Part shown: positions 9,349-46,699 of the stretch, piece after piece
Numbering within the stretch: position 1 is the stretch's first letter
Layout of the letters: each line of letters begins with the position of its first letter
Origin: Caloenas nicobarica
Lineage: Eukaryota
Length of the DNA: 64,000 bases
Assembly: GCF_036013445.1 (NCBI RefSeq)
Contig: NC_088282.1
Location: 133,631-197,630, forward strand
Reading direction: 5' to 3'
Notes under the pieces: generated by a model
Databases searched by the model: none
Told to the model about the DNA's origin: nothing
The model's input: only the letters and a program-made list of their open reading frames with translations
Made by a program: the position numbers and the translations under genes

Positions 9349-9720
9349 GGCCGCCGCTTCCGCCTCCTTCCCGGAAGCGCGCACCGCCTCCCCCTCGCTT
9401 CCCATTGGCTGGGCGGCGCCGCTCGCCCCGCCCTCTCGCTCCTCATTGGTGCGCCGCGCTGTCTCTCTCCCTGCCCCGGGTTCGCCCCGCCCTCTCGCTC
9501 CCCATTGGCTGGGCGGCGCCGCTCACCCCGCCCTCTCGCTCCTCATTGGTGCGCCGCGCTGTCTCTCTCCCTGCCCCGGGTTCGCCCCGCCCCCTCGCTC
9601 CCCATTGGCTCGCCCGCCTCCTCACGCCCCATTGACCCCTTGGTTCGCCCCGCCCCCTCCCTTCCCATTGACACAAGCGGTTCGCCCCGCCCTCTCGCTC
9701 CCCATTGGCCGCGGCGGGGG
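9349..9720. promoter_or_regulatory. INO80E: INO80E promoter carrying a tandem array of NF-Y sites.
   Basis: Sits immediately upstream of the INO80E ATG on the minus strand. Units of about 60-120 bp each carry CCATTGGCT or TCATTGGTG (ATTGG is the reverse complement of CCAAT), at least six copies. Confidence 0.55.
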
Positions 9721-25149: not shown

Positions 25150-26700
25150 GGCCAGCCCGCCCCGCCCCGTTGGCCCCGTTGGCCCGTTACCCGTTATCTC
25201 CTTGTGTCATTGTCCCGTTACCCGTTATCTGCTTGTGTCATTGTCCCGTTACCCGTTATCTGCTTGTGTCACGGTCCCGTTACCCGTTATCTCCTTGTGT
25301 CATTGTCCCATTACCCGTTATCTGCTTGTGTCATTGTCCCGTTACCCGTTATCTGCTTGTGTCACGGTCCCGTTACCCGTTATCTGCTTGTGTCACGGTC
25401 CCGTTACCCGTTATCTGCTTGTGTCACGGTCCCGTTACCCGTTATCTGCTTGTGTCATTGTCCCGTTACCCGTTATCCGCTTGTGTCATTGTCCCGTTAC
25501 CCGTTATCTGCTTGTGTCATTGTCCCGTTACCCGTTATCTGCTTGTGTCACGGTCCCGTTACCCGTTATCTGCTTGTGTCACGGTCCCGTTACCCGTTAT
25601 CTGCTTGTGTCACTGTCCCGTTACCCGTTATCTGCTTGTGTCACGGTCCCGTTACCCGTTATCTGCTTGTGTCACGGTCCCGTTACCCGTTATCTCCTTG
25701 TGTCATTGTCCCGTTACCCGTTATCCGCTTGTGTCATTGTCCCGTTACCCGTTATCTGCTTGTGTCATTGTCCCGTTACCCGTTATCTCCTTGTGTCATT
25801 GTCCCGTTACCCGTTATCTGCTTGTGTCACGGTCCCGTTACCCGTTATCTGCTTGTGTCACTGTCCCGTTACCCGTTATCTGCTTGTGTCACGGTCCCGT
25901 TACCCGTTATCTCCTTGTGTCATTGTCCCGTTACCCGTTATCTCCTTGTGTCACGGTCCCGTTACCCGTTATCTCCTTGTGTCATGGTCCCGTTACCCGT
26001 TATCTGCTTGTGTCATTGTCCCGTTACCCGTTATCTGCTTGTGTCACGGTCCCGTTACCCGTTATCTGCTTGTGTCACTGTCCCGTTACCCGTTATCTCC
26101 TTGTGTCACGGTCCCGTTACCCGTTATCTCCTTGTGTCATGGTCCCGTTACCCGTTATCTGCTTGTGTCATTGTCCCGTTACCCGTTATCTGCTTGTGTC
26201 ATGGTCCCGTTACCCGTTATCTGCTTGTGTCACTGTCCCGTTACCCGTTATCTGCTTGTGTCATTGTCCCGTTACCCGTTATCTGCTTGTGTCATTGTCC
26301 CGTTACCCGTTATCTCCTTGTGTCACTGTCCCGTTACCCGTTATCTGCTTGTGTCATTGTCCCGTTACCCGTTATCTGCTTGTGTCATTGTCCCGTTACC
26401 CGTTATCTCCTTGTGTCACTGTCCCGTTACCCGTTATCTCCTTGTGTCATTGTCCCGTTACCCGTTATCTGCTTGTGTCACGGTCCCGTTACCCGTTATC
26501 TGCTTGTGTCACTGTCCCGTTACCCGTTATCTGCTTGTGTCATTGTCCCGTTACCCGTTATCTGCTTGTGTCATTGTCCCGTTACCCGTTATCTGCTTGT
26601 GTCACTGTCCCGTTACCCGTTATCTCCTTGTGTCACTGTCCCGTTACCCGTTATCTCCTTGTGTCACGGTCCCGTTACCCGTTATCTCCTTGTGTCATTG
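25150..26700. repeat. 30-bp minisatellite CCGTTACCCGTTATCTGCTTGTGTCATTGT, about 50 copies.
   Basis: A very regular direct array in a TAOK2 intron. It creates the 1109-aa pseudo-ORF on the plus strand. Confidence 0.95.
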
Positions 26701-27950
26701 TCCCATCATCCGCATTATTCCCTTATCCCTTTGTCGCATTATCCCCGTCATCCCCGTCATCCCCGTTATCTCTGTTATCTCCGTTATCCCCATTATCCCG
26801 TTATCCCCATTATCCCGTTATCCCCGTTATCCCGTTATCTCCGTTATCCCCATTATCCCCATTATCCCGTTATCTCCATTATCCCGTTATCCTCATTATC
26901 CCATTATCCCATTATCTCCATTATCTCCATTATCCCCATTATATCAATTATCTCTATTATCTCCATTATCCCGTTATCTCCATTATCTCCATTATCCCAT
27001 TATCCTCTTATCTTCATTATCTCCATTATCTCCATTATCCCCATTATTTCCATTATCCCATTATCCCCATTATCTTCATTATCCCCGTTATCCCCGTTAT
27101 GTCCATTATCCCATTATCCCCATTATGTCCATTATCCCGTTATCTTCATTATCCCCGTTATCCCCGTTATGTCCATTATCCCATTGTCTCCGTTAACTTC
27201 ATTATCCCCATTATCTCCTTTATCCCCATTATCCCCATTATCCCCATTATCTCCATTATCTCCATTATCTCTATTATCCCATTATCTCCATTATCTCCAT
27301 TATGCCATTATCTCATTATCCCCGTTATCCCCGCTATCCCATTATCTCCATTATCCCATTATCCCCATTATCCCATTATCTGCATTATCCCCATTGTCCC
27401 ATTATCCCCATTATCCCATTATCTCCATTGTGCCTTTATCTTCATTATCCCATTATCTTCATTATGTCCATTATGTCTATTATCTCATTATCTCTATTAT
27501 CCCATTATCCCATTATCCCCATTATCTTTATTATCCTGTTGTCTCTTTTATCCCATTATTCCCTTGTGCCATTATCCTCATTATCTCCATTGTCCCTGTT
27601 ATCCCATTATTGTCATTGGCCCATTGTCCCCATTATCCTCATTATCCCATTATCCCATTGTCCCCATGTCCCCATTATCCCCATTACCCCATTGTCCCCA
27701 TTGTCCCATTGTTTCCATTGTCCCATTGTCCCCATTACCCCATTGTCCCCATTGTCCCCATTGTCCCCATTGTCCCCGTTATCCCATTGTCTCCGTTGTC
27801 CCCGTTATCCCATTGTTCCTATTACCCCATTGTTCCCATTACCCTATTGTCCCCATTGTCCCCATTATTCTCATTATCCCATTATCCCATTGTCCCCATT
27901 GTCCCATTGTCCCCATTACCCCATTGTCCCTGTTACCCCATTGTCCCCTT
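26700..27950. repeat. 9-bp satellite CCATTATCC / CCATTGTCC, about 130 copies.
   Basis: ccattatccccattatcccattatctccattatc repeated. Confidence 0.9.
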
Positions 27951-27967
27951 GGCCCCGCCCCCCCCAG

Positions 27968-28147
27968 CACCACTTCCTGCGGAGGCCCCGCCCCCCCCGC
28001 GTGCTCCTCGACCTGATTGGCCGAGCCCAGGCGGCCGCCCGCGCCCTGGACCAGCTGCACCTGCGGCCAATGAGGAAGCTGCTGCTCCCGGAAGGCCCCG
28101 CCCACTCCGGCCCCGCCCACCCCGGCCCCGCCCACCCCGGCCCGCAG
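27968..28147 (+). CDS. TAOK2: TAOK2 exon. Encodes HHFLRRPRPPRVLLDLIGRAQAAARALDQLHLRPMRKLLLPEGPAHSGPAHPGPAHPGPQ.
   Basis: Matches human [48 protein letters not shown]. Acceptor cccccag at 27967, donor cag|gtgggt. Confidence 0.8.
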
Positions 28148-31200: not shown

Positions 31201-31619
31201 ATCCCCCAGGAAGGCGCCAACGTGGGTTAGTGCTTCTCTATTGGCGGGGGGGAGCGTTTGACGCCCCCAAAAAGCCCCGAAATTCCCCCAAAACTGACCC
31301 CGAAACCTCCCGGGGTTGCCGGAAATTTCCCGGAACTCCCCAAAAATACCCAAAAAGACCCAAAACACCCCCAAAATAGCCCCAAAACCACCCCGAACAA
31401 GCCCGAAAACGGCCCCGAAATAACCCAACCGCCCCCCCAAAATTAAGCCAAACCAGCCCAAAATGAGCCCAAAAATTAGAGGGGGATATTTTGGGGGGTT
31501 TACGTCCCTATCTCAAGATTTTGGGGCTCAAAAGTGGAATTTTGGGGCGTTTCGTGTCATTATTTCAGCATTTTGGGGTCTCCGAGCCCCAAAAACCTCC
31601 GTTTTTCCCCCAATTTCAG

Positions 31620-33647
31620 GCGCGCCGGGACCAAGAATTTCCCCCCGTCGTTCATAACGAGGAAACGGGACAATTAGAGATTCAATTAACGAGCCCGCGG
31701 GGCCAATACGACCAGTATGACCAGTTCGACCAGTATGACCAGTACAACCAGTTCAACCCTGTAGGTGACACAGGGACCCGGGGGGGACGTTCCCGCCCCA
31801 AACCCCCAAATTCCGGCGATTTAGCCCCAAATTCCAGCAATTTAGCCCCAAATTCCCCCCGTTTTCCCCCCGATCCCTCCAGTTCCTCGCCCAGTTCCTC
31901 CCAGTTTCCTCCCAGTTCCTCCCAGTTTCCTCCCAGTTCCCACGTCCCCCCAAATTCCCCCGTTTCCCTCAATTTTCACCCCGATTTCCCCCCCAGTTCC
32001 CCCATTGATTCCCCCAGTTCTCCCAGTTCTGACCCCAATTTTCCCCCCAGTTTCCCCCCCATTAATTCCCCCAGTTCCCCCAGTTCCGACCCCAGTTCCA
32101 CCCCCAATTTCCCCTCCAGTTCCCCCATTAATTCCCCCATTTCTCCCCCAAATTCCTCTCCCAGTTCCCCCATTAACCCCCCCAGTTCCCCCAGTTTCTC
32201 CCCCGTTAATTCCCCCAGTTGCCCCATTAATCCCCCCGTTAATTGCTCCATTAATCCCCCCGGTTCCCCCCCAAATTTCCCCCCCAGTTCCCCCATTAAT
32301 CCTCCCAGTTCCCCCCCCAGTTCCCCCAGTTTCCCCCCCATTAATCCCCCCAGTTCCCCCATTAACCCCCCCAGTCCCCCCAGTTTCCCCCCCATTGATC
32401 CCCCCAGTTCCCCCATTAATCCCCCCAGTTTCCCCATTGATCCCCCCAGTTTCCCCCCCATTAATCCCCCCAGTTCCCCCATTAACCCCCCCAGTCCCCC
32501 CAGTTTCCCCCCCATTGATCCCCCCAGTTCCCCCATTAATCCCCCCAGTTTCCCCATTGATCCCCCCAGTTTCCCCCCCATTGATCCCCCCAGTTTCCCC
32601 CCCATTAATCCCCCCAGTTCCCCCATTAACCCCCCCAGTCCCCCCAGTTTCCTCCCCATTGATCCCCCCATTGATCCCCCCAGTTTCCCCATTAACCCTC
32701 CCATTGATCCCCCCAGTTCCCCCATTGATCCCCCCAGTTTCCCCCCCATTGATCCCCCCCTTGACCCCCCCGCGTTCCCCCCCATGCCCCGCCCCCTCCC
32801 CAAGCCCCGCCCCCCCGCCCTCCCCGCCCCTCTCCCATTGGCCGCCGCCCTGGCCGCCCTCTGGCTCCGCCCCTCCCTGCCCCTCCTCTTCCTCTTCCTG
32901 TTCCTCTTGCTCCTCCCCCGCGGGGGGCGTGGCCGGGCGGGGGGCGGGGCCGTGGGCGTGGCCTTGGCCTTGACCCTCCCGGCCCCGTTTTGGCGCTTCG
33001 GGGCCGTGACCTTGGCCTTGACCGGGGGGGTTTTGGGGCTCCTGGGGTTCCCCCCTCCCCGCGCTCGCGCTTACGCCCCCGTTTTCCTCTTGGCCGCCCA
33101 ATTTTTCCTCTTCCCGTGGCTCTTTTTGGCGCTTTATTTAGCCGGCTTGGGGGGCCGGGGGGTTTTGGGGGGCGCCGGGGGGCGGAACCGACTCCACCGC
33201 TGGTTATTCCGGGGGGTCCTCGCTTTACCCCCCCCGGTTTTCCGCCTCTTGTCCCGTTTGGGTTTCGTCAGCGAACGGCGATTTTTTCAATTTTTCCCCC
33301 GGGCTAAAAAAACGGGATTTCGGTCCCGTTTGCCCATCCCCCGCCGGGGACCCCCCCCGCCCCCCCGCCCCTCCCCCAACGCCTCTGGAGCCGCGTCCGG
33401 CGCTTCCTGGGGGGGAGGGGGGGGCGGGGGGGGGGGCGGGGGGGGGAACCCCCCAGCCGGATCCCCCGCCCCTCCCCCCGCCCCCCCCGAACCCCCCCGA
33501 GCGGGGGAGGGGGGGGGGGGAGGGGGGCGAAGGGGGGCGGGGGAGGGGGGAGGGGAACGGCCCCGCCCCCCCGCAAACCCTGGAGGTGACGCCGGCCCCT
33601 CCCCCCCACCCCCCCGCCGTGTTCTGGGGGAAAAATTGGGGAAATAG
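31620..33647 (+). CDS. TAOK2: Putative TAOK2 long terminal exon (isoform-1-like tail). It contains a proline-rich coding minisatellite and a multi-hydrophobic tail.
   Basis: One open frame runs from the acceptor cag at 31617-31619 to TAG at 33645-33647. The distal part reads [12 protein letters not shown]...[16 protein letters not shown]...[22 protein letters not shown]. This matches the human TAOK2 isoform-1 tail LLLLLLPLLAAQ...YPKTNKDGFRSRLPVPGPRRRNP. The proximal part [16 protein letters not shown] is only weakly similar to human SSIIHRLPGSDNLYDD. An internal donor cct|gtaggt at 31761 could mark an alternative boundary. The coiled-coil exons that belong between here and 29445 were not found. 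Confidence 0.4.
   Translation, partial: [675 protein letters not shown]
31800..32780 (+). repeat. TAOK2: Proline-rich coding minisatellite of about 30 bp inside the open reading frame of the putative TAOK2 tail exon.
   Basis: Repeated ccccccagttcccccattaatcccccagtt encodes [12 protein letters not shown]-type peptides. Confidence 0.7.
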
Positions 33648-35349: not shown

Positions 35350-38000
35350 TTAAACATCCCCCAAATTCATCCTTTTCGGGTTGTTTTTTTCGGGGCACCC
35401 ATGGGTGGGGGGCACCCAATGGGGACCCAACGATCGCCCAACAGGGACCCGACGCGGAGCCGAGAGCAATGAGCCAATGGGGAGCCAGAAATGGCTGAGG
35501 GACCCAACGATGAGCCAATGGGGACCGAGAGGTGGGTGAAGGGACCAATGGGGACCCAGCCATGAGCCGGTGGCCAATAGGGAGCCGGCGGGGTCTTGGT
35601 GGGGACGCGGGGGACCAATGGGGAGCAAGAGGTGGGCGAGGGAACCAATGGGGACCCAACGATGACCCAATGGGAGCCAACGGCCAATGGGGACCCAACG
35701 ATGACCCAACGGCCAATGGGGACCCAACAATGACCCAACGGCCAATGGGGACCCAACGATGACCCAATGGCCAATGGGGACCCAACATTGACCCAACGGC
35801 CAATGGGGACCCAACGATGACCCAATGGCCAATGGGGACCCAACAATGACCCAACGGCCAATGGGGACCCAACGATGACCCAATGGGAGCCAATGGGGAC
35901 CCAACGTTGACCCAATGGGACTCAATGGGACCCAACGATGACCCAATGGCCAATGGGGACCCAACGATGACCCAACAGCCAATGGGACCCCACGATGACC
36001 CAACGGCCAATGGGGACCCAACGTTGACCCAATGGGACTCAATGGGACCCAACGATGACCCAATGGGCAATGGGGACCCAACGATGACCCAACGGCCAAT
36101 GGGGACCCAATGATGACCCAATGGGGACCCAACGATGACCCAATGGGAGCCAATGGGGACCCAACGATGACCCAACGTTGACCCAATGGGACTCAATGGG
36201 ACCCAACGATGACCCAACGGCCAATGGGGACCCAACAATGACCCAATGGGACGCAAGGGCCAATGGGGACCCAATGGGGTCTTGATGGGGACGTGGGGAC
36301 CCAATGGGGACCCAACGATGACCCAATGGGGTCTTGATGGGGACATGGGGACTCAATGGGGATCCAATGGGGTCTTGAAGGGGTCTTGGGGACCCAATGC
36401 AGACCCAACGTTGACCCAATGGAGACCAAGAGGGGGGTGAAGGACCCAATGGGGACCCAACATTGACCCAACAAGGACCCAATGGGGGCTTGGGGACCCA
36501 ACATTGACCCAATGGGGACCCAACGGGGTCTTGATGGGGACACGGAGACCCAATGGGGTCTTGGTGGGGTCTTGGGGACCCAACAGTGACCCAATGGAGA
36601 ACAAGGAGTGGGTGCAGGACCCAATGGGGACCCAACATTGACCCAATGGGGACCCAATGGGGTCTTGGTGGGGTCTTGAGGACCCAACAATGACCCAACA
36701 TTGACCCAATGGGGACCAGGAGGTGGGTGAGGGACCCAATGGGGACCCAACGATGACCCAGTGGGGTCTTGCTGGGGACATGGGGACCCAACGATGACCC
36801 GACAAGGACCCAATGGGGTCTTGGGGACCCAACAATGGCCCAACATTGACCCAATGGGGACCAGGAGGTGGGTGAGGGACCCAATGGGGACCCAACGATG
36901 ACCCAACGGGGTCTTGGGGACCCAACGATGACCCAGTGGGGTCTTGGTGGGGTCTTGGGGACCCAACATTGACCCAACGGGGTTTTGGGCACCCAACAAT
37001 GACCCAACATTGTCCCAATGGGGACCCAATGGGGTCTTGATGGGGTCATGGGGACCCAACGATGACCCAACGATGACCCAATGGGGTCTTGGTGGGGTCT
37101 TGGGGACCCAATGGGGACCAGGAGGTGGGTGAGGGACCCAATGGGGACCCAACGATGACCCAACATTGTCCCAATGGGGACCCAACAATGACCCAGCAAG
37201 GACCCAATGGCCAATGGGGACCCAATGGGGTCTTGATGGGGACATGGGCACCCAATGGGGACCCAACGGGGTCTTGGGGACCCAACGGTGACCCAACGAT
37301 GACCCAATGGGGTCTTGGTGGGGTCTTGGGGACCCAATGGGGTTTTGGGCACGCAACAATGACCCAACATTGTCCCAATGGGGACCCAATGGGGTCTTGA
37401 TGGGGACATGGGGACCCAACGATGACCCAACGATGACCCAATGGGGTCTTGGTGGGGTCTTGGGGACCCAATGGGGACCAGGAGGTGGGTGAGGGACCCA
37501 ATGGGGACCCAACGATGACCCAATGGGGTCTTGGTGGGGTCTTGGGGACCCAACGATGACCCAATGGAGTCTTGGGGACCCAACAATGACCCAACATTGT
37601 CCCAATGGGGACCCAACAATGACCCAGCAAGGACCCAATGGCCAATGGGGACCCAATGGGGTCTTGATGGGGACATGGGCACCCAATGGGGACCCAACGG
37701 GGTCTTGGGGACCCAACAATGACCCAATGGGGTCTTGGGGACCCAATGGGGACCCAACATTGACCCAACAGGGTTTTGGGCACCCAACAATGACCCAACA
37801 TTGTCCCAATGGGGACCCAATGGGGTCTTGATGGGGTCATGGGGACCCAACGATGACCCAACGATGACCCAATGGGGTCTTGGTGGGGTCTTGGGGACCC
37901 AACAATGACCCAACATTGTCCCAATGGGGACCCAATGGGGACCCAACGATGACCCAACGGGGTCTTGGGGACCCAACAATGACCCCAAACGTGTGGGGTG
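35350..38000. repeat. Satellite of about 21 bp, GACCCAATGGGGACCCAACGAT, more than 100 copies over about 2.6 kb.
   Basis: gacccaacgatgacccaatggccaatggggacccaacaatgacccaacggccaatgggg repeated. Confidence 0.9.
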
Positions 38001-38760
38001 AGGGGTCCCCAAACCCCCATTTTTCCAATGGGGGGGATCCCCACACCCCCATTTTATTTGGAGGGGGGGGTCCCCAAACCCCCATTTTTCCATTGGGGGG
38101 GATCCCCAAACCCCAATTTTATTGGGGGGGGGATCCCCACACCCCCATTTTTATTGGGGGGGATCCCCAAACCCCCATTTTATTTGGGGAGGGGGTCCCC
38201 AAACCCCCATTTTTCCATTAGGGGGGATCCCCAAACCCCCATTTTATTGGGGGGGGGGGGTCCCCAAACCCCCATTTTTCCATTGGGGGGGATCCCCAAA
38301 CCCCCATTTTATTTGGGGGGGGGGTCCCCAAACCCCCATTTTTCCATTGGGGGGGATCCCCAAACCCCCATTTTTATTGGGGGGGGGTCCCCAACCCCCA
38401 TTTTATTTGGGGGGGGGGTCCCCAAACCCCCATTTTATTTGGGGTGGGGATCCCCACACCCCCATTTTTCCATTGGGGGGTCTCCAAACCCCCATTTTAA
38501 TGGGGGGAGGGGTCCCCAAACCCCCATTTTATTTGGGGGGGGGTCCCCAAACCCCCATTTTTCCATTGGGGGGGATCCCCAACCCCCATTTTATTTGGGG
38601 GGGGGTCCCCAAACCCCCATTTGGCTCCTTTGGGCCCCTCCCCTCCCCCCCAAAAAAAACCCATTTTATTTTGGGCAGCCCCAAAAATCCCCATTTTCTC
38701 TTTTTTTGGGGGGGGCCCTTCCCACCCCCCCCCCCAAGCCCCCGCCCTCCCCCCCTTTTT
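38000..38760. repeat. Tandem repeat of about 40 bp, GGGGGGATCCCCAAACCCCCATTTTATTTGG.
   Basis: A direct tandem array with alternating poly-G and poly-C runs. Confidence 0.85.
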
Positions 38761-38989
38761 TAACCGATTTTTAATTAAAATATGAACGAAAACCGAGTGG
38801 TTTTGAAGCCCCGCCCACTCTGTGACGCGCCCGGACGCCTGGGTCCTCCCGGAAGTGAGGGGGGGGGGGGCGTTAATTAAGGTTCTAATTAGCGGGGAGG
38901 CCCGGGGGGGGGGGGGGGGGGCTATGGGAGGCTCGGGGGAGGGGCTAATTACCCCCTTCATTAATTCCTCACGCGTTAATTAGCGATTT

Positions 38990-39253
38990 CCCGCCCCGTT
39001 GCCATGGAAACCGCGGCGGGAGCGGAACAGGCCGCGGCCCCGCGCGGGCGCGCGGGGGATGCCGGGAAGCGCCGCCCCTTTTGGGCGGGGCGGAGTGTGG
39101 AGGTGTGGGGGGGGAAGCGCCGCTGATTGGTCGCGGCGGGGGAGAGCGGGGCGCTGATTGGCTGCGGGCGGCGGGGAGGCGGGCGTTCCCGGGGTCACGT
39201 GGGAGGCGGGCGCTCTTAAAGGGGCCGCGGAGGGGCCGGGGGGTCGCGGGGCG
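38990..39253 (+). promoter_or_regulatory. CDIPT: CDIPT promoter with two inverted CCAAT boxes, a USF-type E-box and a TATA-like element.
   Basis: gctgattggtcg is at about 39125 and gctgattggctg at about 39155. ggtcacgtggg is at about 39193. ctcttaaagggg is at about 39218. The CDIPT ATG is at 39254. Confidence 0.5.
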
Positions 39254-39293
39254 ATGGGGGAGAACGTGCTGGTGTTTGTGCCCAACGTCATCG
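39254..39293 (+). CDS. CDIPT: CDIPT exon 1. Encodes MGENVLVFVPNVI(G).
   Basis: Matches human CDIPT MPDENIFLFVPNLIG. Donor atcg|gtgagg at 39294. Confidence 0.8.
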
Positions 39294-39299
39294 GTGAGG

Positions 39300-40800
39300 G
39301 GGCGGGGGACCGGGGGGGCTGGGATGGACTGGGGGGACTGGGATATACTGGGGGAACTGGGATGGACTGGGGGGACTGGGGGACCGGGGGGACTGGGATA
39401 TACTGGGGGAACTGGGAGGGATTGGGGGGAACTGGGATGGACTGGGGTAAACTGGGGGACTGGGAGGGACTGGGGGGACTGGGATATACTGGGGGAACTG
39501 GGAGGGACTGGGGGAACTGGGGGAACTGGGATATACTGGGGGAACTGAGATAAACTGGGATATACTGGGGGGAACTGGGATGGACTGGGGTAAACTGGGG
39601 GACTGGGGGGAACTGGGATATACTGGGGGAACTGGGAGGGACCGGGGGGACTGGGGGGAACTGGGATAAACTGGGGGACTGGGAGGGACTGGGATAAACT
39701 GGGATATACTGGGGGAACTGGGGGACTGGGAGGGACTGGGATAAACTGCGATATACTGGGGTAAACTGGGATGGACTGGGGGGAACTGGGATAAACTGAG
39801 GGGACTGGGAGGGACTGGGGGGAACTGGGAGGGACTGGGATATACTGGGGGGACCGGGGGGAACTGGGATAAACTGGGATATACTGGGGGGACTGGGAGG
39901 GACCGGGGGAACTGGGATATACTGGGTTATACTGGGGGAACTGGGGGGAACTGGGATATACTGGGTTATACTGGGGGAACTGGGAGGGACCGGGCGGACC
40001 GGGGTAAACTGGGATAAACTGGGGTGGACTGGGGGGAACTGGGATAAACTGGGGGACTGGGAGGGACTGGGGGGAACTCGGAGGGACTGGGGGACCAGTG
40101 GGAACTGGGATAAACTGGGATGAACTGGGGGGACTGGGATGAACTGGGGGGACTGGGATTGACTGGGGAACTGGGGGGAACTGGGATAAACTGGGATATA
40201 CTGGGGGGAACTGGGGGATTGGGATTAACTGGGGTAAACTGGGATAAACTGGGGGACTGGGATGTGCTGAGGGGACTGGGGGGAACTGGGATAAACTGGG
40301 ATATACTGGGATGGACTGGGGGGAATTGGGGGGACTGGGGTGAACTGGGGGGGACTGGGATAAACTGGAGGCACTGGGATGGACTGAGGGGACTGGGATA
40401 AACTGGGAGGACTGGGGGGGAACTGGGATGGACTGGGATAAACTGGAATGGACTGGGGGGGGGGACTGGGATGGACTGGGGGGGACTGGGGGGAATTGGG
40501 GGACTGGGGGGGACTGGGATAAACTGGGAGGACTGGGGGGGAACTGGGATGGACTGGAGGACTTGGGGGGGACTGGGGTAAACTGGGATAAACTGGGATG
40601 GACTCGGGGGGGACTGGGATGGACTGGGGGGACTGGGGGGAATTGGGGGGACTGGGGTAAACTGGGATAAACTGGGATGGACTGGGGGGGACTGGGATGG
40701 GCTGGGGGGACCGGGGGGAATTGGGGGGACTGGGATAAACTGGAGGCACTGGGATGGACTGGGGGGACTGGGATGAGCTGGGGGGGACGGGGGGGTTCAG
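39300..40800. repeat. Satellite of about 21 bp, GGGACTGGGATATACTGGGGGAACT, in CDIPT intron 1.
   Basis: A direct tandem array. The same family recurs at 44090-45530. Confidence 0.9.
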
Positions 40801-40825
40801 GGGTGACCCCCGTCCATCCCCCCAG

Positions 40826-40960
40826 GCTACGGCCGCCTGGCTCTGGCCGCCGCCTCCTTCTGGCTGATGCCGACGCGGCCGGGCCCGGCGGCCGCGCTCT
40901 ACGGGGCCAGCGCCCTGCTGGACGCCGTGGACGGCGCCGTGGCCCGGATGTTGGGCCAGG
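40826..40960 (+). CDS. CDIPT: CDIPT exon 2. Encodes (G)YGRLALAAASFWLMPTRPGPAAALYGASALLDAVDGAVARMLGQ.
   Basis: Matches human YARIVFAIISFYFMPCCPLTASSFYLLSGLLDAFDGHAARALNQ. Acceptor cccccag at 40825, donor cagg|gtgggc. Confidence 0.8.
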
Positions 40961-41650
40961 GTGGGCGGGGCTTCCGGGGGGCGGGGCCTCGGGGGGCGGG
41001 GCCGGGGGCGGGGCCTCGGGGGGGCGGAGCTAAGGGGGGAAGGGGGTCATACAGGGGGTGGGGGGGAAGAATGGTGCTGTTGGGGGCGTGGCTTAGAGGG
41101 AAGGGGCGTGGTTTGGAGGGGGCGTGGCTTATAGGGGTCTGAGGGGGCGGGGCCTGGGGGGGTGGAGCTAAGGGGGGTGGGGGAAGGGGGTGTATAGGGG
41201 GTGGGGGGTAAAGAATGGGGCTGTTGGGGGCGTGGCTTGGAGCGAAGGGGCGTGGTTTGGAGGGCAGGGGGCGTGGCCTGCAGGGGAGGGGTCTGAGGGG
41301 GCGGAGCTAAGGGGGGGAAGGGGGTCATACAGGGGGTGGGGGGGGAAGAATGGGGCTGTTGGGGGCGTGGCTTAGAGGGAAGGGGTGTGGTTTGGAGGGG
41401 GGCGTGGCTTATAGGGGTCTGAGGGGGCGGGGCCTCGGGGGGGCGGAGCTAAGGGGGAAGGGGGGTGTATCATAGGGGGTGGGGGTAAAGAATGGGGTGG
41501 GGGGCGTGGCTTGGAGAGAATGGGCGTGGTTTAGCGGGGAGGGGGCGTGGCTTGGAGGGGCGTGGCTTTAGGGGTGGGGAGTCGAGGGGAGGAGCCTGAG
41601 GGGGCGTGGCCTGGAGGGGGCGGAGCTTGGGGGGTAACTGGGGTGAATGG
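40960..41650. repeat. G-rich repeat of about 180 bp (about 3.5 copies) with GC-boxes (GGGGCGGGGC) and GGGGCGTGGC elements.
   Basis: ggggcggggcctcgggggggcggagctaagggggg...gggggcgtggcttagagggaaggggcgtggtttggagggg repeated in CDIPT intron 2. Confidence 0.8.
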
Positions 41651-42520
41651 GGGTGGGAGGGGCCATGGGGGGGCGGGGCCTCGAGGGGGCGGAGCCTGCA
41701 GGGGTCACTGGGGTGTATGGGGTGGGAAATGGTCCAAACTGGTTTATACTGGTTTGTACTGGAAATGGCATTAACAACGGTTATGGGGCTTTTTGGGGGC
41801 AGGGGGTGCCAGGGGGGTGTTAGGGGGTCACTGGGGGGTCCCACATGACCATTGGCGAGGTGAACTGGTCCATACTGGTCCATACTGGTTTATACTGGAA
41901 ATGGCATTAACAGCAGTTATGGGGGTTTTTGCGGGCAGGGGGTGTCGGGGAGGTGTTAGGGGGTCACTGGGAGGTCCCACATGACCATTGGTGAGGTGAA
42001 CTGGTCCATACTGGTCCATACTGGTCCATACTGGTTTATACTGGAAATGGCCTTAACAACAGTCATGGGGGTTTTTGTGGGCAGGGGGTGTTGGGGGGGG
42101 TCAGGGGGTCACTGGGGGGTCCCCCAGGACCCTTGGGGAGGTGAACTGGTCCATACTGGTCCATACTGGTGCATACTGGTCCATACTGGTTTATACTGGA
42201 AATGGCCTTAACAGCAGTTATGGGGGGTTTTGCGGGCAGGGGGAGTCGGGGGGGGTCAGGGGGTCACTTGGGGGTCCCCCAGGACCCTTGGGGAGGTGAA
42301 CTGGTCCATGCTGGTTTATACTGGTTTATACTGGAAATGACATTAACAGCAGTTATGGGGCTTTTTGTGGGCAGGGGGTGTCGGGGGGGTGTTAGGGGGT
42401 CACTGGGGGGTCCCCCAGGACCCTTGGGGAGGTGAACTGGTCCATACTGGTCCATACTGGTTTATACTGGAAATAGGCTTAACAGCAGTTATGGGGGGTT
42501 TTGCGGGCAGGGGGTGTCGG
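41650..42520. repeat. Tandem repeat of about 180 bp containing CCATACTGG decamers.
   Basis: ggtccatactggtttatactggaaatggcattaacagcagttatgggg...gtcactggggggtcccacatgaccattggcgaggtgaactggtcc repeated about 5 times. Confidence 0.8.
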
Positions 42521-42583
42521 GGGGGGTTCCGGGAGGGTCCCCGCCCCCCCGGTGGGCGTGTCCATCGCTGGCCCCGCCCCCAG

Positions 42584-42737
42584 GCTCGCGCTTCGGCGCC
42601 ATGCTGGACATGCTGACCGACCGGCTGAGCTCCATGTGCCTGTTGGTCAACCTGGCGCTGCTCTACCCGGCAACCGCCGCCCTGTTCCAGCTCAGCATGG
42701 CCCTGGACGTGGCCAGCCATTGGCTGCACGTGCACTG
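42584..42737 (+). CDS. CDIPT: CDIPT exon 3. Encodes (G)SRFGAMLDMLTDRLSSMCLLVNLALLYPATAALFQLSMALDVASHWLHVH.
   Basis: Matches human GTRFGAMLDMLTDRCSTMCLLVNLALLYPGATLFFQISMSLDVASHWLHLH. Acceptor cccccag at 42583, donor cactg|gtgggc. Confidence 0.85.
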
Positions 42738-42739
42738 GT

Positions 42740-43330
42740 GGGCGGGGCTTGGGGGAGGGGGTGGAGCCAAGGGAGGGGGCGGGGCTGGGGGGTGTGGCCT
42801 GGGGGGTGGGGCTAAGGGAGGGGGTGGGGCTTTGGGGGTGTGGTCTGGGGAGGGGGTGGAGCTAAGGGGGTGGGGATTGAGGGGGTGTGGCCAAAGGAGG
42901 GGGCGGAGCCAAGGGAGGGGGTGGGGCTGGGGGTGTGGCCTGGGGAGGGGGCGGAGCTAAGGGGGTGGGGATTGAGGAGGTGTGGCCAAGGGGGGAGGGG
43001 GTGGGGGGAGGGGGCGGGGCTAAGGAGGGGTGGGGATCGAGGGGGTGTGGCCATGGGGGGGCGGGGCTAAGGGGGGTGGGGAAAGGGGGAGGGGGTTGAG
43101 GGGGTGTGGCCAAAGGAGGGGGTGGGGCTAGAGAGGTGGGGCCAAGGGAGGGGGCGGGGCCAAGGGGGTGGGATTGGGGGTTGGTCAATGGGGAAGGGGG
43201 CGGAGCCTGGGGAAGGGGGTGGAGCTTGGGGAAGGGGGCGGGGCCTCGTGGTGGGCGGGCCCAGGGGCGGGTTTCCCATGGGCTGTATGGGGAGGGCGGG
43301 GCTTAACGCGGGGGGGCGTGGCCGCCGCCT
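42740..43330. repeat. GC/GT-box array (GGGGGCGGGGC, GGGGTGTGGCC, GGGGTGGAGC) with a unit of about 60 bp.
   Basis: gggggtggagccaagggagggggcggggctggggggtgtggcctgggg repeated in CDIPT intron 3. Confidence 0.8.
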
Positions 43331-43364
43331 GACCCCGCCCCCTCGCCCCTCCCCTCCCCCCCAG

Positions 43365-43446
43365 CACCACCCTGGAGGGCGGGGCCTCCCACAAGGCTGT
43401 GGGGGGGGAGGGGCACCCGCTGCTGCGGCTGTACTACAGCTCCAGG
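43365..43446 (+). CDS. CDIPT: CDIPT exon 4. Encodes (C)TTLEGGASHKAVGGEGHPLLRLYYSSR.
   Basis: Matches human SSVVRGSESHKMIDLSGNPVLRIYYTSR. Acceptor ccccccag at 43364, donor tccagg|gtgagg. Confidence 0.8.
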
Positions 43447-43449
43447 GTG

Positions 43450-43980
43450 AGGGGGGAGGGGTGGGGGGAGGGGTCGGGATGGGGGAGGGGTCGGGGGAGG
43501 GGGAGGGGCTGGGGGGGAGGGGGAGAGAGGAGGGGGAGGGGCCAAGGGGGGGAGGGACCTTGAGGGGGGAGGGGTTGGGGGGGGTCAAGGGGTTGGGGGG
43601 AGGGGTCGGGGTGGGGGAGGGGTGGGGGTGGGGCCAAGGGGGGGATGGGGTGGGGGAGGGGCTGGGGGAGGGGCTGGGGATGGGGGAGGGGCCTTGGGGA
43701 GGGAGGGGGGTGGGGGAGGGGCAAAGGGGGTGGGGGGGAGGGGACTTGGGGAGGGGGTGGGGGCGGGGGTGGGGGGAGGGGCCAAGGGGGGAGGGTTTGG
43801 GGGAGGGGGGAAAGGGGAGGGGTCGGGGGTGGGGGAGGGGCCAAGGGGGAGGAGGGGTTGGGGGGAGGGGCTGGAGGTGGGGGAGGGGTTGGGGGTGTTG
43901 TCAGGGAGTGGAGGGGGGGGAGGGGTAAAAGGGAGGGGGGGGGAGGGGCAAAGGGGGTGGGGGCGGGGCCTGTGTGGCTG
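43450..43980. repeat. GGGGAGGGG-rich repeats (unit about 30-40 bp).
   Basis: gggggaggggtcggggtgggggaggggccaagggggg repeated in CDIPT intron 4. Confidence 0.7.
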
Positions 43981-43994
43981 ACCCCGCCCCCCAG

Positions 43995-44076
43995 CCGCTG
44001 CTGTTCCTGGTGTGCGCGGGGAACGAGGCGTTTTACTGCAGCCTGTACCTGCTGAGCTTCACGGAGGGACCCCCCG
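43995..44076 (+). CDS. CDIPT: CDIPT exon 5. Encodes PLLFLVCAGNEAFYCSLYLLSFTEGPP(G).
   Basis: Matches human PALFTLCAGNELFYCLLYLFHFSEGPLVG. Acceptor ccccccag at 43994, donor ccccg|gtgaga. Confidence 0.8.
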
Positions 44077-44089
44077 GTGAGAGCCGGAG

Positions 44090-45530
44090 GGGCTGGGAGG
44101 GACTGGGAGGGACTGGGATATACTGGGAAGGAACTGGGAAAGACTGGGAGGGAACTGGGATATACTGGGAGGGAACTGGGATATACTGGGAGGAGATTGG
44201 GATGGACTGGGAGGGAACTGGGAGGCACTGGGATATACTGGGAGGGAACTGGGAGGAGATTGGGATGGACTGGGAGGGACTGGGATATACTGGGAGGGAA
44301 CTGGGAGGAGATTGGGATGGACTGGGAGGGAACTGGGAGGGACTGGGATATACTGGGAGGGAACTGGGAGGAGATTGGGATGGACTGGGAGGGAACTGGG
44401 AGGGACTGGGAGGGGACTGGGAGAGACTGGGGGGGACTGGAAGGGACTGGGAGGGGACTGGGATATACTGGGAGGGGACTGGGAGAGACTGGGAGGGAAC
44501 TGGGAGGGGATTGGGATGGACTGGGAGGGAACTGGGAGGCACTGGGATATACTGGGAGGGAACTGGGAGGAGATTGGGATGGACTGGGAGGGAACTGGGA
44601 GGCACTGGGATATACTGGGAGGGAACTGGGAGGAGATTGGGATGGACTGGGAGGGAACTGGGATATACTGGGAGGGAACTGGGAGGAGATTGGGATGGAC
44701 TGGGAGGGAACTGGGAGGGACTGGGATATACTGGGAAGGACTGGGAGGGGACTGGGAGAGACTGGGGGGGACTGGAAGGGACTGGGAGGGGACTGGGATA
44801 TACTGGGAGGGGACTGGGAGGGAACTGGGAGAGACTGGGAGGGGATTGGGATGGACTGGGAGGGAACTGGGAGGCACTGGGAGGGACTGGGATATACTGG
44901 GAGGGACTGGGAGGAGATTGGGATGGATTGGGATATACTGGGAGGGACTGGGGGGAACTGGGAGGGACTGGGAGGGGACTGGGAGAGACTGGGAGGGACT
45001 GGGAGGGACTGGGATATACTGGGATGGACTTGGGGGTCAGTGGGATATACTGGGATGGAGCTGGGGGGATACTGGGATGAACTGGGGGGATACTGGGATA
45101 TACTGGGGTGGAGTTGGGGGTCAGTGGGATATACTGGGATGAACTGGGGGGATACTGGGATATACTGGGATGGACTTGGGGGGCACTGGGATGAACTGGG
45201 GGGATACTGGGATATACTGGGATGGACTTGGGGGTCACTGGGATGAACTGGGAGGATACTGGGATATACTGGGATGGACTTGGGGGTCACTGGGATGAAC
45301 TGGGGGGATACTGGGATATACTGGGATGGACTTGGGGGTCACTGGGATATACTGGGATGGAGTTGGGGGGCACTGAGATGAACTGGGGGGATACTGGGAT
45401 ATACTGGGATGGACTTGGGGGTCACTGGGATGAACTGGGATGGACTTGGGGGTCACTGGGATGAACTGGGGGGATACTGGGATATACTGGGCTGGAGTTG
45501 GGGGGATACTGGGATGAACGGGGGGATACT
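44090..45530. repeat. Satellite of about 21 bp, GGGACTGGGATATACTGGGAGGGAACT, the same family as 39300-40800.
   Basis: A direct tandem array in CDIPT intron 5. Confidence 0.9.
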
Positions 45531-45560
45531 GGTGTGAACTGGTCCGTACTGGTGTCCCAG

Positions 45561-45733
45561 TGCTCCCGGGGGGCCCGGGGCTGTTCCGGGTCGTTCTGTG
45601 GGTCGCGACCCCCACGGCCGCCCTCAAGTTCCTGCTGAACCTGCTGCAGTTGGGCGGAGCCGCCACGCGATTGGCCGCCCTGGACGCCGCTGCCAGGCGA
45701 TTGGCTGAGCCCCCCAGACCCAAAACCCAATGA
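45561..45733 (+). CDS. CDIPT: CDIPT terminal exon. Encodes (V)LPGGPGLFRVVLWVATPTAALKFLLNLLQLGGAATRLAALDAAARRLAEPPRPKTQ and the stop codon.
   Basis: Matches human SVGLFRMGLWVTAPIALLKSLISVIHLITAARNMAALDAADRAKKK. Acceptor tcccag at 45560, TGA at 45731-45733. Confidence 0.8.
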
Positions 45734-45869
45734 ATTCGCCCCAAAATACAAACCCCGTCCCCCCCACCCCGGAACCCCTGGGGAAAATCCCCAAAGCGAC
45801 CCCGAAAAGGACGCCCGATAAACGGCGCTGGTGCCCCCGCCCGCCTGGGTCCTTCGGTGTTGGCTCGTT

Positions 45870-46400
45870 AAGACCTTGGCCAATCAATGGGGGGTTAATT
45901 AGGGGTTAATTAAGAGCAAGGAGAGGCCTCCCGAATATCTAGACCCCATAACTACCAATGTCATGGAGACACGATGACCTTGAACCCCATGGACACCCAA
46001 CAACCCCTTGAGATGTTTCTTCACCACTGACTCGTCAAGACCTTGGCCAATCAATGGGGGGTTAATTAGGGGTTAATTAAGAGCGGGGAGGGGCCTCCCG
46101 ACCTTCTAGACCCCATAACTACCAATGTCATGGAGACACGATGACCTTGAACCCCATGGACACCCAATAACCCCTTGAGATGTTTCTTCACCATTGACTC
46201 ATCAAGACCTTGGCCAATCAATGGGGGGTTAATTAGGGGTTAATTAAGAGCGGGGAGGGGCCTCCCGACCTTCTAGACCCCATAACTACCAATGTCATGG
46301 AGACACGAAGACCGTGAACCCCATGGACACCCAACAACCACCAACCCCTTGAGATGTTTCTCCACCATTGACTCGTTAAGACCTTGGCCAATCAAGAAGG
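45870..46400. repeat. Tandem repeat of about 180 bp, 3 copies. Each copy carries a CCAAT box and two TTAATTAG motifs.
   Basis: tcgttaagaccttggccaatcaatggggggttaattaggggttaattaagagcggggagggg...catggacacccaacaaccccttgagatgtttcttcaccattgac repeated. It lies between the convergent CDIPT and MFAP4 3' ends. Confidence 0.85.
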
Positions 46401-46446
46401 GGGTTTAATTGCGTGCACGGGGGAGGGGCGAGGAGGGGGAGGGGCC

Positions 46447-46694
46447 TCAGAGCCGCCGGATCTTCATCTCGCTCTTCTTGAGCGAGTAGTAGAAGCCCTT
46501 CCACTGGGCCCAGTTGATGCCGTTGGCGTAGGAGAGGTGGGCGCCCCCCAGGTAGAAGCCGTTGAGGTTGGAGAAGTGGCAGCTCTTGAACCACCAGGCG
46601 CCCGAGGAGAGGGCGGCGCAGTTCTGCACGTACAGGTCCTGGTCGCGGTCGAACGTGGAGAATTTCTGCCCGTTGTGGTAGCTCAGGGAGTCGC
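46447..46694 (-). CDS. MFAP4: MFAP4 terminal exon (fibrinogen C-terminal domain). Encodes (G)[81 protein letters not shown] and the stop codon.
   Basis: Near-identical to human MFAP4 [81 protein letters not shown]. The stop codon (reverse complement TGA) begins at 46447. Confidence 0.9.
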
Positions 46695-46699
46695 CTGGG

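Follow-up and report, generated by a model that had tools for sequence, protein, structure and literature searches.

The homeodomain-type word TAATTA lies in clusters on both sides of the CDIPT gene of the Nicobar pigeon, Caloenas nicobarica, which raises the question of whether one element, regulatory or mobile, gave rise to both clusters or whether they have nothing to do with each other. Here, we describe a 64-kb stretch of this genome (the window, whose coordinates are used throughout) and its counterparts in other birds, and conclude that each cluster is a thing of its own, with its own history, and that neither marks a mobile element. Our whole account, a regulatory module upstream of CDIPT and a separate duplication of the MFAP4 3' end downstream, is one that we hold with moderate confidence.

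The CDIPT locus and its TAATTA clusters

A sequence-only reading had named CDIPT and a convergent MFAP4, and both calls are right, CDIPT lying on the + strand and MFAP4 on the - strand, with exons and stop codon located (Table 1). The predicted CDIPT protein is 100% identical to Caloenas nicobarica CDIPT isoform X2 (P0001) over 88% of the prediction, and the final 81 residues of MFAP4 are the same in Caloenas, Cuculus and Grus. The strings quoted in that reading are all present at the coordinates it gave and the clusters are real: the window holds 11 TAATTA, every one within the two clusters. The total is not enriched (7.6 +/- 2.7 expected, 13 of 100 shuffles reaching 11), whereas the clustering is extreme, the upstream patch having five sites where its own composition predicts 0.022 (0 of 20000 shuffles reach five) and a single downstream repeat unit two where 0.036 are expected (10 of 20000 shuffles); GTTAATTA occurs eight times against 0.94 expected. 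The base composition given earlier needs correction, as the supposedly GC-poor patch has 57% GC overall, against a window mean of 58%, and is made up of G-runs interspersed with AT words, and the surroundings, put at about 70 percent GC, measure 58-66%. No structured RNA was found at the two clusters.

Table 1. Features around CDIPT in the Caloenas window
Feature	Position	Strand	Details
Upstream TAATTA cluster	38772-38982		sites at 38772, 38874, 38886, 38946, 38977
TAATTA site 1	38766..38780	+	TTTTTAATTAAAAT; overlaps canonical ATTAAA 38774-38779
GC-box / CRE half-site / ETS-like block	38810..38860	+	CCCCGCCCACTCTGTGACGCGCC ... CCGGAAGTG; alignment A1
Paired homeodomain-type sites	38872..38893	.	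GTTAATTAAGGTTCTAATTAGC
Three further TAAT-core sites	38944..38985	.	CTAATTAC, CATTAATTC, GTTAATTAG
RFX-type X-box	38998..39011	.	GTTGCCATGGAAAC
CDIPT core promoter region	39055..39222	+	GGGGATGCCGGGAAGCGCCGCC; inverted CCAAT boxes (CTGATTGG) 39123, 39154; CACGTG 39197-39202; CTCTTAAAGG 39213-39222
CDIPT coding region	39254..45733	+	six exons: 39254-39293, 40826-40960, 42584-42737, 43365-43446, 43995-44076, 45561-45733
Tandem array	45860..46395	.	167-bp period, 3.2 copies, 93% matches (Tandem Repeats Finder); CCAAT boxes 45880, 46047, 46214, 46388
Downstream TAATTA cluster	45896-46246		pairs 45896/45907, 46063/46074, 46230/46241; two per unit, three copies
Terminal partial copy (MFAP4 3' UTR + poly(A) region)	46345..46446	-	
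MFAP4 last coding exon	46447..46695	-	convergent to CDIPT; stop 46447-46449 (+ strand TCA)

The upstream patch in other birds

The upstream patch (38766-39011) has an orthologous place in seven birds including emu, always 200-660 bp before the CDIPT ATG, and its blocks are colinear in alignment A1. TAATTA counts are five in Patagioenas (L001 9527-9761), three in the crane Grus, eight in the sparrow Zonotrichia and four in Cuculus; the cormorant Phalacrocorax has two together with ATTAAT/TCATTA words, and the emu Dromaius two together with three HNF1-like palindromes. In each species' 23-31 kb locus, most TAATTA outside repeats, or all of them, are at this place. From 5' to 3' the order is the GC-box/CRE/ETS-like block, the TAAT island, the RFX X-box and the CCAAT / CACGTG / CTCTTAAAGG promoter. 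The first block matches emu L004 9249-9303 (77% over 62 bp, E = 5e-6, BLAST) and its CCGCCCACTTTGTGACGCG is the same word in crane and sparrow. The paired sites correspond to GGTTAATTAAGGGTCTAATTAAG in Patagioenas, GTTAATTAATGGGTTAATTAA in Zonotrichia and a single site in Grus. Palindromes resembling the HNF1 consensus (GTTAATNATTAAC) occur in the patch of several species, and the middle one of the three further Caloenas sites aligns with GTTAATTATTGAC, GTTAATAATTAAT and GTTAATTATTAAT of other birds, the Caloenas palindromes having decayed (none within two mismatches). The X-box, for which the RFX consensus is GTTGCCATGGCAAC, has counterparts in Grus (GTTGCCATGGTAAC at 9661), Zonotrichia (GTTGCCACGGCAAC at 9542) and Patagioenas (GTCGCCATGGGAAC). 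Minisatellite expansions lie 5' of the patch, with none between patch and promoter.

Judged from sequence, these comparisons show that the patch is a noncoding element whose orthologues are conserved among birds, with an island of TAAT cores. Against crane it is 71% identical over 157 bp (E = 1e-13, BLAST), which is not above the third-codon-position identity of the adjacent MFAP4 exon (74%), so the case for constraint rests on the persistence of motif content in a GC-rich setting and not on a rate test. The chicken contig has no such patch, and neither have a bat and a gecko. In turtle, GTTGCCATAGCAAC follows the only two TAATTA by about 115 bp and may mark an equivalent, an element that BLAST did not align. 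The chicken contig has a different upstream neighbour and still carries the CDIPT core promoter, whose elements are the same and in the same order in all birds examined; thus either basal CDIPT expression does not need the patch, or the patch pertains to the upstream gene.

Regulatory module or 3'-end zone

Most probably the patch is a regulatory module lying upstream of the promoter, and it may overlap the upstream gene's poly(A) site. It would recruit homeodomain-class and RFX factors and modulate CDIPT or possibly the upstream neighbour. The ATTAAA at 38774-38779, included in TAATTAAA and followed by GTGGTTTTG, may be the poly(A) signal of the + strand gene upstream, in which case the first patch site would do double duty. 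The same observation opens a different reading, which we regard as rather unlikely, that the patch is mainly a 3'-end processing and termination zone of that gene rather than a platform for transcription factors, its live and decayed poly(A) signals being kept since transcription must stop before the CDIPT promoter. In five of the seven birds, the + strand AATAAA/ATTAAA that occur after the upstream CDS and before the CDIPT ATG fall inside the patch (the Caloenas interval has one additional ATTAAA, at 34051, outside it), Zonotrichia has four canonical hexamers within 110 bp, and the chicken contig, with its other neighbour, is without a patch. Moreover, a poly(A) signal gave rise to the downstream cluster, and AT-rich islands of this GC-rich region thus tend toward 3' ends. 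However, in crane and emu the TAAT cluster persists although the interval holds no canonical hexamer, four of the Caloenas sites, out of five, do not form poly(A) hexamers, and polyadenylation makes no use of the conserved X-box or the HNF1-like palindromes. In addition, the patch lies anywhere from 130 bp to more than 4 kb beyond the upstream CDS end, yet stays near the CDIPT promoter. A regulatory module thus remains our preferred reading of the patch.

The downstream array and the MFAP4 3' end

Downstream, the earlier description of a repeat of about 180 bp in three copies, each with a CCAAT box, was right about the copies and the boxes, but the period is 167 bp. The array fills almost the entire gap between the two convergent genes and, extended to the MFAP4 stop (45860-46446), is shown by alignment to be a head-to-tail duplication of the MFAP4 3' UTR, the poly(A) signal ATTAAA and roughly 100 bp beyond it. 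On the - strand the terminal copy reads stop codon, some 40 nt of G/C-rich UTR, GCAATTAAAC (with ATTAAA at 46404-46409), TTGATTGGCCAAGGTCTT and a GU-rich stretch. The internal copies align with it end to end (alignment A2), up to the base beside the MFAP4 stop (GGGGAGGGGCCTC then CCG versus GGGGAGGGGCCTC then AGAG). Where the terminal copy has GTTTAATTG on the + strand, that is CAATTAAAC with its ATTAAA on the - strand, internal copies have GTTAATTA; the alignment thus shows a predicted working hexamer kept in the MFAP4-adjoining copy and changed in the others. The ATTAAA is at the same position in Caloenas, Patagioenas, Grus, Cuculus and cormorant (TTTAATAGCG), and emu has AATAAA there.

Each internal copy carries GGGGTTAATTAGGGGTTAATTAAG, an exact 11-bp tandem duplication (e.g. 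45891-45901 plus 45902-45912). In the reconstruction that the copies show, this pigeon microduplication (GGGGTTAATTA twice) doubled the TAATTA word and array expansion multiplied it, to 3.2 copies in Caloenas and 9.4 copies of about 176 bp in Patagioenas (L001 17722-19397). Cuculus has two internal copies and a terminal one, the internal ones with a single TTAATTA; paired TAATTA are found in pigeons only. Pigeon and cuckoo internal copies agree in their duplication junction, GGGGAGGGGTC(A/T)CCTGACCT, and in the derived word TTAATTA, and the distal copy in crane retains TTTAATTG. As the array is shared by pigeons, cuckoo and crane, with copy number varying by species, it is old, and it would have arisen once, before these lineages diverged. 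The cormorant has the terminal copy only, with no array adjacent to CDIPT, and emu shows no trace of the 167-bp unit. A Patagioenas minisatellite with 50 TAATTA is about 71% identical to a window stretch that has none, so array growth alone can multiply such words.

Most likely the internal copies have no function and would be by-products occupying the space that separates the two convergent poly(A) sites. It is doubtful that the array is instead maintained by selection, either as a multi-copy enhancer (each unit having a CCAAT/NF-Y box, an AAGGTC nuclear-receptor half-site, an AP-1-like TGACTCA and a homeodomain site, TTAATTA) or as a pause or termination buffer between CDIPT and MFAP4. The first 112 bp or so of the unit are nearly invariant over 12 copies from two genera, and the core is the only noncoding piece between CDIPT and MFAP4 that aligns between cuckoo and pigeon (83% over 64 bp), either of which could mean that internal copies are constrained rather than neutral; the derived state of the internal copies in pigeons and cuckoo, the distal crane copy and a dense crane run of CCAAT boxes (about 16 tandem GAAGACCTTGGCCAATCAAC units) point the same way. 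Yet core identity to Caloenas (0.69-0.83 in Cuculus, 0.86-0.90 in Patagioenas, 0.77-0.81 in Grus) was judged not above the third-codon identity of the neighbouring MFAP4 exon (0.84, 0.93 and 0.74, respectively), unit length and copy number vary freely, the cormorant has the terminal copy alone, and the motif matches are short and were picked out by eye. We therefore retain the by-product reading of the internal copies.

One element or two

The sequence-only reading had proposed that both clusters may be shared regulatory or insulator-like elements, or mobile termini bracketing CDIPT. A common origin is suggested by two TAATTA 11-12 bp apart, followed in the same orientation by GCGGGGAGG..CC, in both clusters (81% over 37 bp, E = 0.014, BLAST), but this is their sole similarity and is limited to the paired motif and G-runs. 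The downstream pair is the pigeon-only microduplication within an MFAP4 3'-end paralogue, whereas the upstream pair is also present in sparrow and is thus older. The patch occurs without an array beside CDIPT in cormorant and without any trace of the unit in emu, and what would be the insert is CDIPT itself, a conserved host gene of six exons that all birds have in the same place. No mobile-element signature and no CTCF-like motif was found at either cluster, the latter speaking against a CTCF-type insulator, and there are no other copies of either element in the 64-kb window or of the 167-bp unit in seven loci (L001-L007, about 184 kb). We therefore consider a single shared or mobile element extremely improbable; a regulatory role is plausible for the patch itself. 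The data likewise contradict a satellite spread over the genome without regard to genes, both clusters being tied to genes and orthologous in other birds.

Comparison with known systems

Like transposable-element termini (LTRs or TIRs), the clusters flank a segment with similar short AT-rich words that point the same way. They differ in lacking target-site duplication logic, in enclosing a conserved host gene, in the independent origin of the flanks and in the absence of dispersed copies, for both elements from the window and for the 167-bp unit from L001-L007.

The array resembles minisatellites or tandem arrays formed when a gene's 3' end is duplicated locally (tandem poly(A)-site duplications): it is head-to-tail, homologous to adjacent unique sequence and begins at the base beside the stop codon, its copy number differs among species, and a functional hexamer is predicted only in the gene-attached copy. 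Unlike these, it is old (pigeons, cuckoo and crane), nearly fills the gap between convergent genes, and has internal copies that share the derived TTAATTA instead of decaying at random.

The patch departs from conserved non-exonic elements and promoter-proximal cis-regulatory modules in that its neighbour is not a developmental regulator but a housekeeping lipid-synthesis gene, in being missing from the chicken contig, bat and gecko, and in having a first site that may double as a poly(A) signal. It is like them, as a candidate from sequence alone, in its above-chance TAAT cores, in an orthologous position kept in Neoaves and a palaeognath while sites turn over and motif content persists, and in the X-box that adjoins the cluster directly upstream of a CCAAT/E-box housekeeping promoter.

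Gene setting and comparison set

The two TAATTA clusters lie on either side of CDIPT, whose stop codon is 713 bp from that of the convergent gene MFAP4, and the predicted CDIPT protein is 100% identical to Caloenas nicobarica CDIPT isoform X2 (P0001) over 88% of its length. CDIPT was formerly among the genes believed to be lost from chicken, and the microchromosome regions that bird assemblies lacked until recently are GC-rich and repeat-laden, a character that the window shares (PMC5470226). The comparison set comprised the CDIPT loci of ten other species: six other birds that carry the upstream patch (Patagioenas fasciata, a second pigeon genus; the cormorant Phalacrocorax carbo; the crane Grus japonensis; the emu Dromaius; the sparrow Zonotrichia; and the cuckoo Cuculus), a chicken contig, green turtle, bat and gecko. 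Protein divergence of the convergent neighbours is very unequal: in CDIPT the two pigeon genera share only 86% identity and other birds 69-81%, and the last 81 residues of MFAP4 show no differences among Caloenas, cuckoo and crane.

Upstream of CDIPT, a long open reading frame encodes, after a proline-rich repeat, hydrophobic segments of membrane-like character; it has no match in Pfam or NCBIfam and aligns to the upstream gene of Patagioenas (locus L001, 5394-6915). The C-terminal exon of the kinase gene found upstream in the cuckoo, a gene that may be TAOK2, was detected in the crane and emu loci but in neither the window nor the loci of Patagioenas, sparrow and cormorant. The CDIPT introns are filled with ACTGG-based G-rich minisatellites, ACTGG occurring in the Caloenas window at 42 per kb within CDIPT, 3.4 outside it and 0.3 antisense. 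In six other birds including emu (fetched loci L001, L002, L003, L004, L007 and L010) it occurs at 14-48 per kb and is likewise gene- and strand-specific, a pattern that the chicken contig, turtle, gecko and bat do not show; the CDIPT gene body of these six birds has a GC skew of +0.26 to +0.55.

Features of the window (window positions)
Feature	Position	Strand	Description
C-rich array	7509-9171		TCCCCCAAAT, ~160 copies, no TAATTA
AT-rich satellite	15016-16855		42-bp unit, ~44 copies, 27-33% GC, no TAATTA
Stretch matched by the Patagioenas 70-bp minisatellite	~26700-28100		no TAATTA
Open reading frame	31491-33647	+	aligns to Patagioenas upstream gene
Further ATTAAA	34051		
Satellite block	36000-37985		complex 11-bp-based CCAATGGGGAC array
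Satellite block	37994-38622		32/62-bp GGGGATCCCCAAACCCCCATTTT array
Upstream patch	38760-38990		231 bp; with the X-box, to 39011
ATTAAA in first TAATTA site	38774		within TAATTAAA
RFX X-box	38998-39011		GTTGCCATGGAAAC
CDIPT	39254-45733	+	six exons
CDIPT-intron minisatellites	39306-40792, 41864-42525, 44086-45540	sense only	include GGGACTGGGA (~154 copies), GGAGGGACTG (~134 copies) and ACTGGTCCAT
Downstream array	45860-46395		tandem units
Paired TAATTA of the array unit	45891-45901, 45902-45912		GGGGTTAATTA, each 11 bp
Terminal-copy hexamer	46404-46409	-	ATTAAA
MFAP4 last exon	46447-46695	-	convergent to CDIPT; earlier exons to ~51187
CTCF core match	54862		sole match in window (<=1 mismatch)

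TAATTA words are confined to two clusters

The sequence-only reading had described conspicuous clusters of TAATTA on both flanks of CDIPT, and the observation holds, the strings that it cited all being present where it placed them; its interpretation is supported only in part. The window total of 11 TAATTA is not above chance (7.6 +/- 2.7 expected; at least 11 in 13 of 100 shuffles), and all 11 are confined to the two clusters. Five lie in the upstream patch, where its own base composition predicts 0.022 (none of 20000 shuffles reaches five), a clustering of TAAT cores beyond chance. The patch had been called GC-poor, a description that does not survive measurement, as its overall GC content is 57% and the mean of the window is 58%. 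TAATTA does not occur in the AT-rich satellites (25-33% GC) found elsewhere in the window. Immediately 5' of the patch are two satellite blocks. The other six TAATTA are downstream, where a unit repeated in tandem contributes two in each of three copies. Tandem copies on the 3' side of CDIPT had also been proposed and are real, with a period of 167 bp rather than about 180 (Tandem Repeats Finder; 3.2 copies, 93% matches).

A conserved element upstream of the CDIPT promoter

In Caloenas and in the six other birds, including emu, an island of TAAT cores precedes the CDIPT ATG by 200-660 bp. In each of the six other loci (23-31 kb each), it accounts for most or all TAATTA outside tandem repeats. 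The patch contains five TAATTA in Patagioenas, eight in Zonotrichia, four in Cuculus, three in Grus, two together with ATTAAT/TCATTA words in Phalacrocorax, and two together with three HNF1-like palindromes in emu. Its blocks are colinear between birds, both in an alignment of the patches (alignment A1) and by BLAST, in which the Caloenas patch matches crane at 71% over 157 bp and emu at 77% over 62 bp. Read towards the gene, these blocks are an AT-rich start; CCGCCCACTTTGTGACGCG with an ETS-like CCGGAAGTG; paired TAATTA; a G-run; a GTTAATTAYTNAC block; an RFX X-box; GGGGATGCCGGGAAGCGCCGCC; and finally two inverted CCAAT boxes, CACGTG and CTCTTAAAGG, followed by the ATG. The X-box is a conserved palindrome, with crane, sparrow and turtle matching the pattern GTNRCC(N0-3)RGYAAC strictly and Caloenas one base off. 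The HNF1-type palindrome GTTAATNATTAAC is found in the patch with at most one mismatch in emu (three), crane (one) and sparrow (one), and at two mismatches in cormorant (two) and Patagioenas (one), and within these five loci such palindromes are nearly confined to the patch. A consensus scan of the Caloenas patch finds none within two mismatches, the palindrome having decayed there.

These comparisons show the patch to be an orthologous element that has been retained since before the palaeognath-neognath split. Individual sites in it turn over, whereas its complement of motifs endures amid GC-rich sequence. Its identity to crane is 71% over the 157 bp; for the last exon of MFAP4, the figure at third codon positions is 74%. 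Beyond birds, the sole X-box (GTTGCCATAGCAAC) and the sole two TAATTA in 25 kb of green turtle sequence lie within ~150 bp of each other, and the ATG exon, which is preceded by a splice-acceptor-like sequence, lies 8 kb downstream of this segment. The motif order and the sole TAATTA pair and X-box are only suggestive of orthology to the bird patch, because the segment gives no BLAST alignment to the bird patches. The patch is absent from the chicken contig, which keeps the core promoter and has a different upstream neighbour, and from the bat and gecko CDIPT loci, in which synteny differs.

We favour the view that the patch is a promoter-upstream regulatory module, a function that we infer because it stays near the CDIPT promoter and contains an X-box, GC-box/ETS and homeodomain-type words. 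Minisatellite expansion is seen only on the side of the patch away from this promoter. A serious rival is that the patch serves, instead or in addition, in 3'-end formation of the upstream plus-strand gene: in five of seven birds the canonical hexamers between the end of the upstream coding sequence and the CDIPT ATG lie inside the patch, and the first Caloenas TAATTA site itself includes an ATTAAA; Caloenas has one further ATTAAA, outside the patch.

The downstream array consists of MFAP4 3'-end copies

The copy that adjoins MFAP4 differs from the others in the array. The terminal copy reads CCATTGACTCGTTAAGACCTTGGCCAATCAAGAAGGGGGTTTAATTGCGTGCACGGGGGAGGGGC...GGGGCC and then TCA, the MFAP4 stop codon, and the internal copies read ...CCAATCAATGGGGGGTTAATTAGGGGTTAATTAAGAGCGGGGAGGGGCC and then TCCCG; terminal and internal copies align end to end (alignment A2, which compares the two, and a further alignment), with homology up to the stop codon. 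In MFAP4 strand order, the stop codon is followed in the terminal copy by ~40 nt of G/C-rich UTR, GCAATTAAAC, TTGATTGGCCAAGGTCTT and a GU-rich run, placing ATTAAA ~38 nt past the stop codon, and this is the layout of a predicted poly(A) site. The hexamer position is conserved in six other birds, among them Patagioenas, crane, cuckoo and cormorant with ATTAAA and emu with AATAAA. The internal copies contain neither AATAAA nor ATTAAA, and read TTAATTAAC on the minus strand and TTAATTAAG on the plus strand. Because of the end-to-end alignment, together with the poly(A) layout and conserved hexamer of the terminal copy, each internal unit is paralogous to the entire MFAP4 3' UTR with its putative poly(A) region. 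The array is made up of head-to-tail copies homologous to the adjoining 3' UTR/poly(A) region, the arrangement of a tandem 3'-end duplication. On the CDIPT side, only variant hexamers (AATGAA, AATACA, GATAAA) are seen between the Caloenas stop codon and the array. In the cuckoo, AATAAA overlaps the CDIPT stop codon (locus L010, 12937-12942; GCCAATAAACC), which suggests an extremely short CDIPT 3' UTR.

In Patagioenas the same array, at the same place, comprises 9.4 copies of a unit of about 176 bp. The cuckoo array consists of two internal copies with one GGGGTTAATTA each and a terminal copy with GGGGTTTAATTG, the crane has a distal copy bearing GGGTTTAATTG and ~16 tandem GAAGACCTTGGCCAATCAAC sub-units, and the cormorant has the terminal copy alone. 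The crane GAAGACCTTGGCCAATCAAC run (locus L003, 18690-19040; 20-21-bp unit) lies directly downstream of the MFAP4 poly(A) signal and forms a dense series of consensus CCAAT boxes that stem from this MFAP4 3'-end module. The internal copies of pigeon and cuckoo have in common both a derived TTAATTA and the junction of the duplication, GGGGAGGGGTC(A/T)CCTGACCT. The orders of pigeons, cuckoos and cranes split near the base of Neoaves. As the array and its derived features extend beyond pigeons, the duplication is most simply explained by a single old event.

The pigeon pair is an exact 11-bp tandem duplication within the 3'-end copies. The six downstream TAATTA thus go back to a single MFAP4 poly(A) hexamer, mutated by a TTTAATTG-to-TTAATTA change, which a slip of 11 bp doubled and expansion of the array then tripled. 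A 70-bp minisatellite in Patagioenas (locus L001, 1253-2943) has 50 TAATTA and is ~71% identical to a stretch of the window that has none; this natural example shows that TAATTA words can easily be multiplied by array growth alone.

Whether selection maintains the internal copies was judged against MFAP4. Over 12 copies in two genera, the initial ~112 bp are nearly invariant, an invariance that goes beyond the TAATTA words, and the array core is the sole noncoding stretch between CDIPT and MFAP4 that can be aligned between cuckoo and pigeon (83% over 64 bp). The identity of the repeat core to Caloenas is 0.86-0.90 in Patagioenas, 0.69-0.83 in Cuculus and 0.77-0.81 in Grus, and the third codon positions of the last MFAP4 exon give 0.93, 0.84 and 0.74, respectively; core identity is thus not better than that at third positions of this adjoining exon. 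The internal copies are therefore treated as probably neutral filler that separates two convergent poly(A) sites. That they act as an enhancer or terminator is a minority possibility. We consider it improbable that the array is a selectively kept multi-copy module between CDIPT and MFAP4 that predates the pigeon-cuckoo-crane split, in which disabled poly(A)-site units with CCAAT, AAGGTC, TGACTCA and TTAATTA would, on a GC-rich microchromosome dense in genes, buffer transcription termination or serve both genes as a 3' enhancer. Folding of the 167-bp unit has no unusual stability (z = -0.15 on the plus strand, +0.28 on the minus strand), and an Rfam scan gave no match, its only sub-threshold hits (MIMT1_1 and S35, in the satellite at 38.4-38.7 kb) being noise.

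Relation of the two clusters

The sequence-only reading had considered the clusters as shared regulatory or insulator-like elements, or as the termini of a mobile element. Similarity between them amounts to only 81% over 37 bp (E = 0.014), made up of the paired motif and G-runs, which does not bear out a shared element. The upstream TAATTA pair is common to Caloenas and sparrow, whereas the downstream pair is a pigeon-only microduplication within an MFAP4 3'-end copy, and the two clusters are unrelated, of differing ages and origins. An insulator role finds no backing in a CTCF core, as CCASYAGRKGGCR is absent from both clusters; the shared-insulator reading was rejected, the clusters being unrelated and without a CTCF-like motif. 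Mobile-element termini were also rejected: the flanks are of different origin, with a conserved six-exon gene between them, the cormorant has the patch without the array beside CDIPT, and the emu has the patch with no trace of the unit. Further copies, as a mobile element or common satellite might leave, were sought by self-BLAST, and the window contains none of either element, the hits besides the 37-bp match being only G-run or minisatellite noise; the 167-bp unit has no further copy in seven fetched loci (about 184 kb). TAATTA-bearing intronic arrays in the sparrow were dismissed as relatives, being unrelated ACTGG-type minisatellites.

Conclusions

In the GC-rich, repeat-laden sequence of bird microchromosomes, rare AT-rich words are informative landmarks, here of a promoter-upstream element conserved among birds and of a putative poly(A) site that was tandemly duplicated and later amplified. 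An apparent cluster of transcription factor motifs can have a mechanical origin, which calls for caution in motif-based enhancer calling. Modest points of interest are, in our view, the age of the array, this mechanical origin and the use of AT-rich words as landmarks; if the array or the patch were functional, it would bear on how interference is prevented among tightly packed tandem and convergent genes. A literature search found nothing specific on either the patch or the array. By its features, the upstream patch fits conserved promoter-upstream elements, and the downstream array fits tandem duplications of gene 3' ends.
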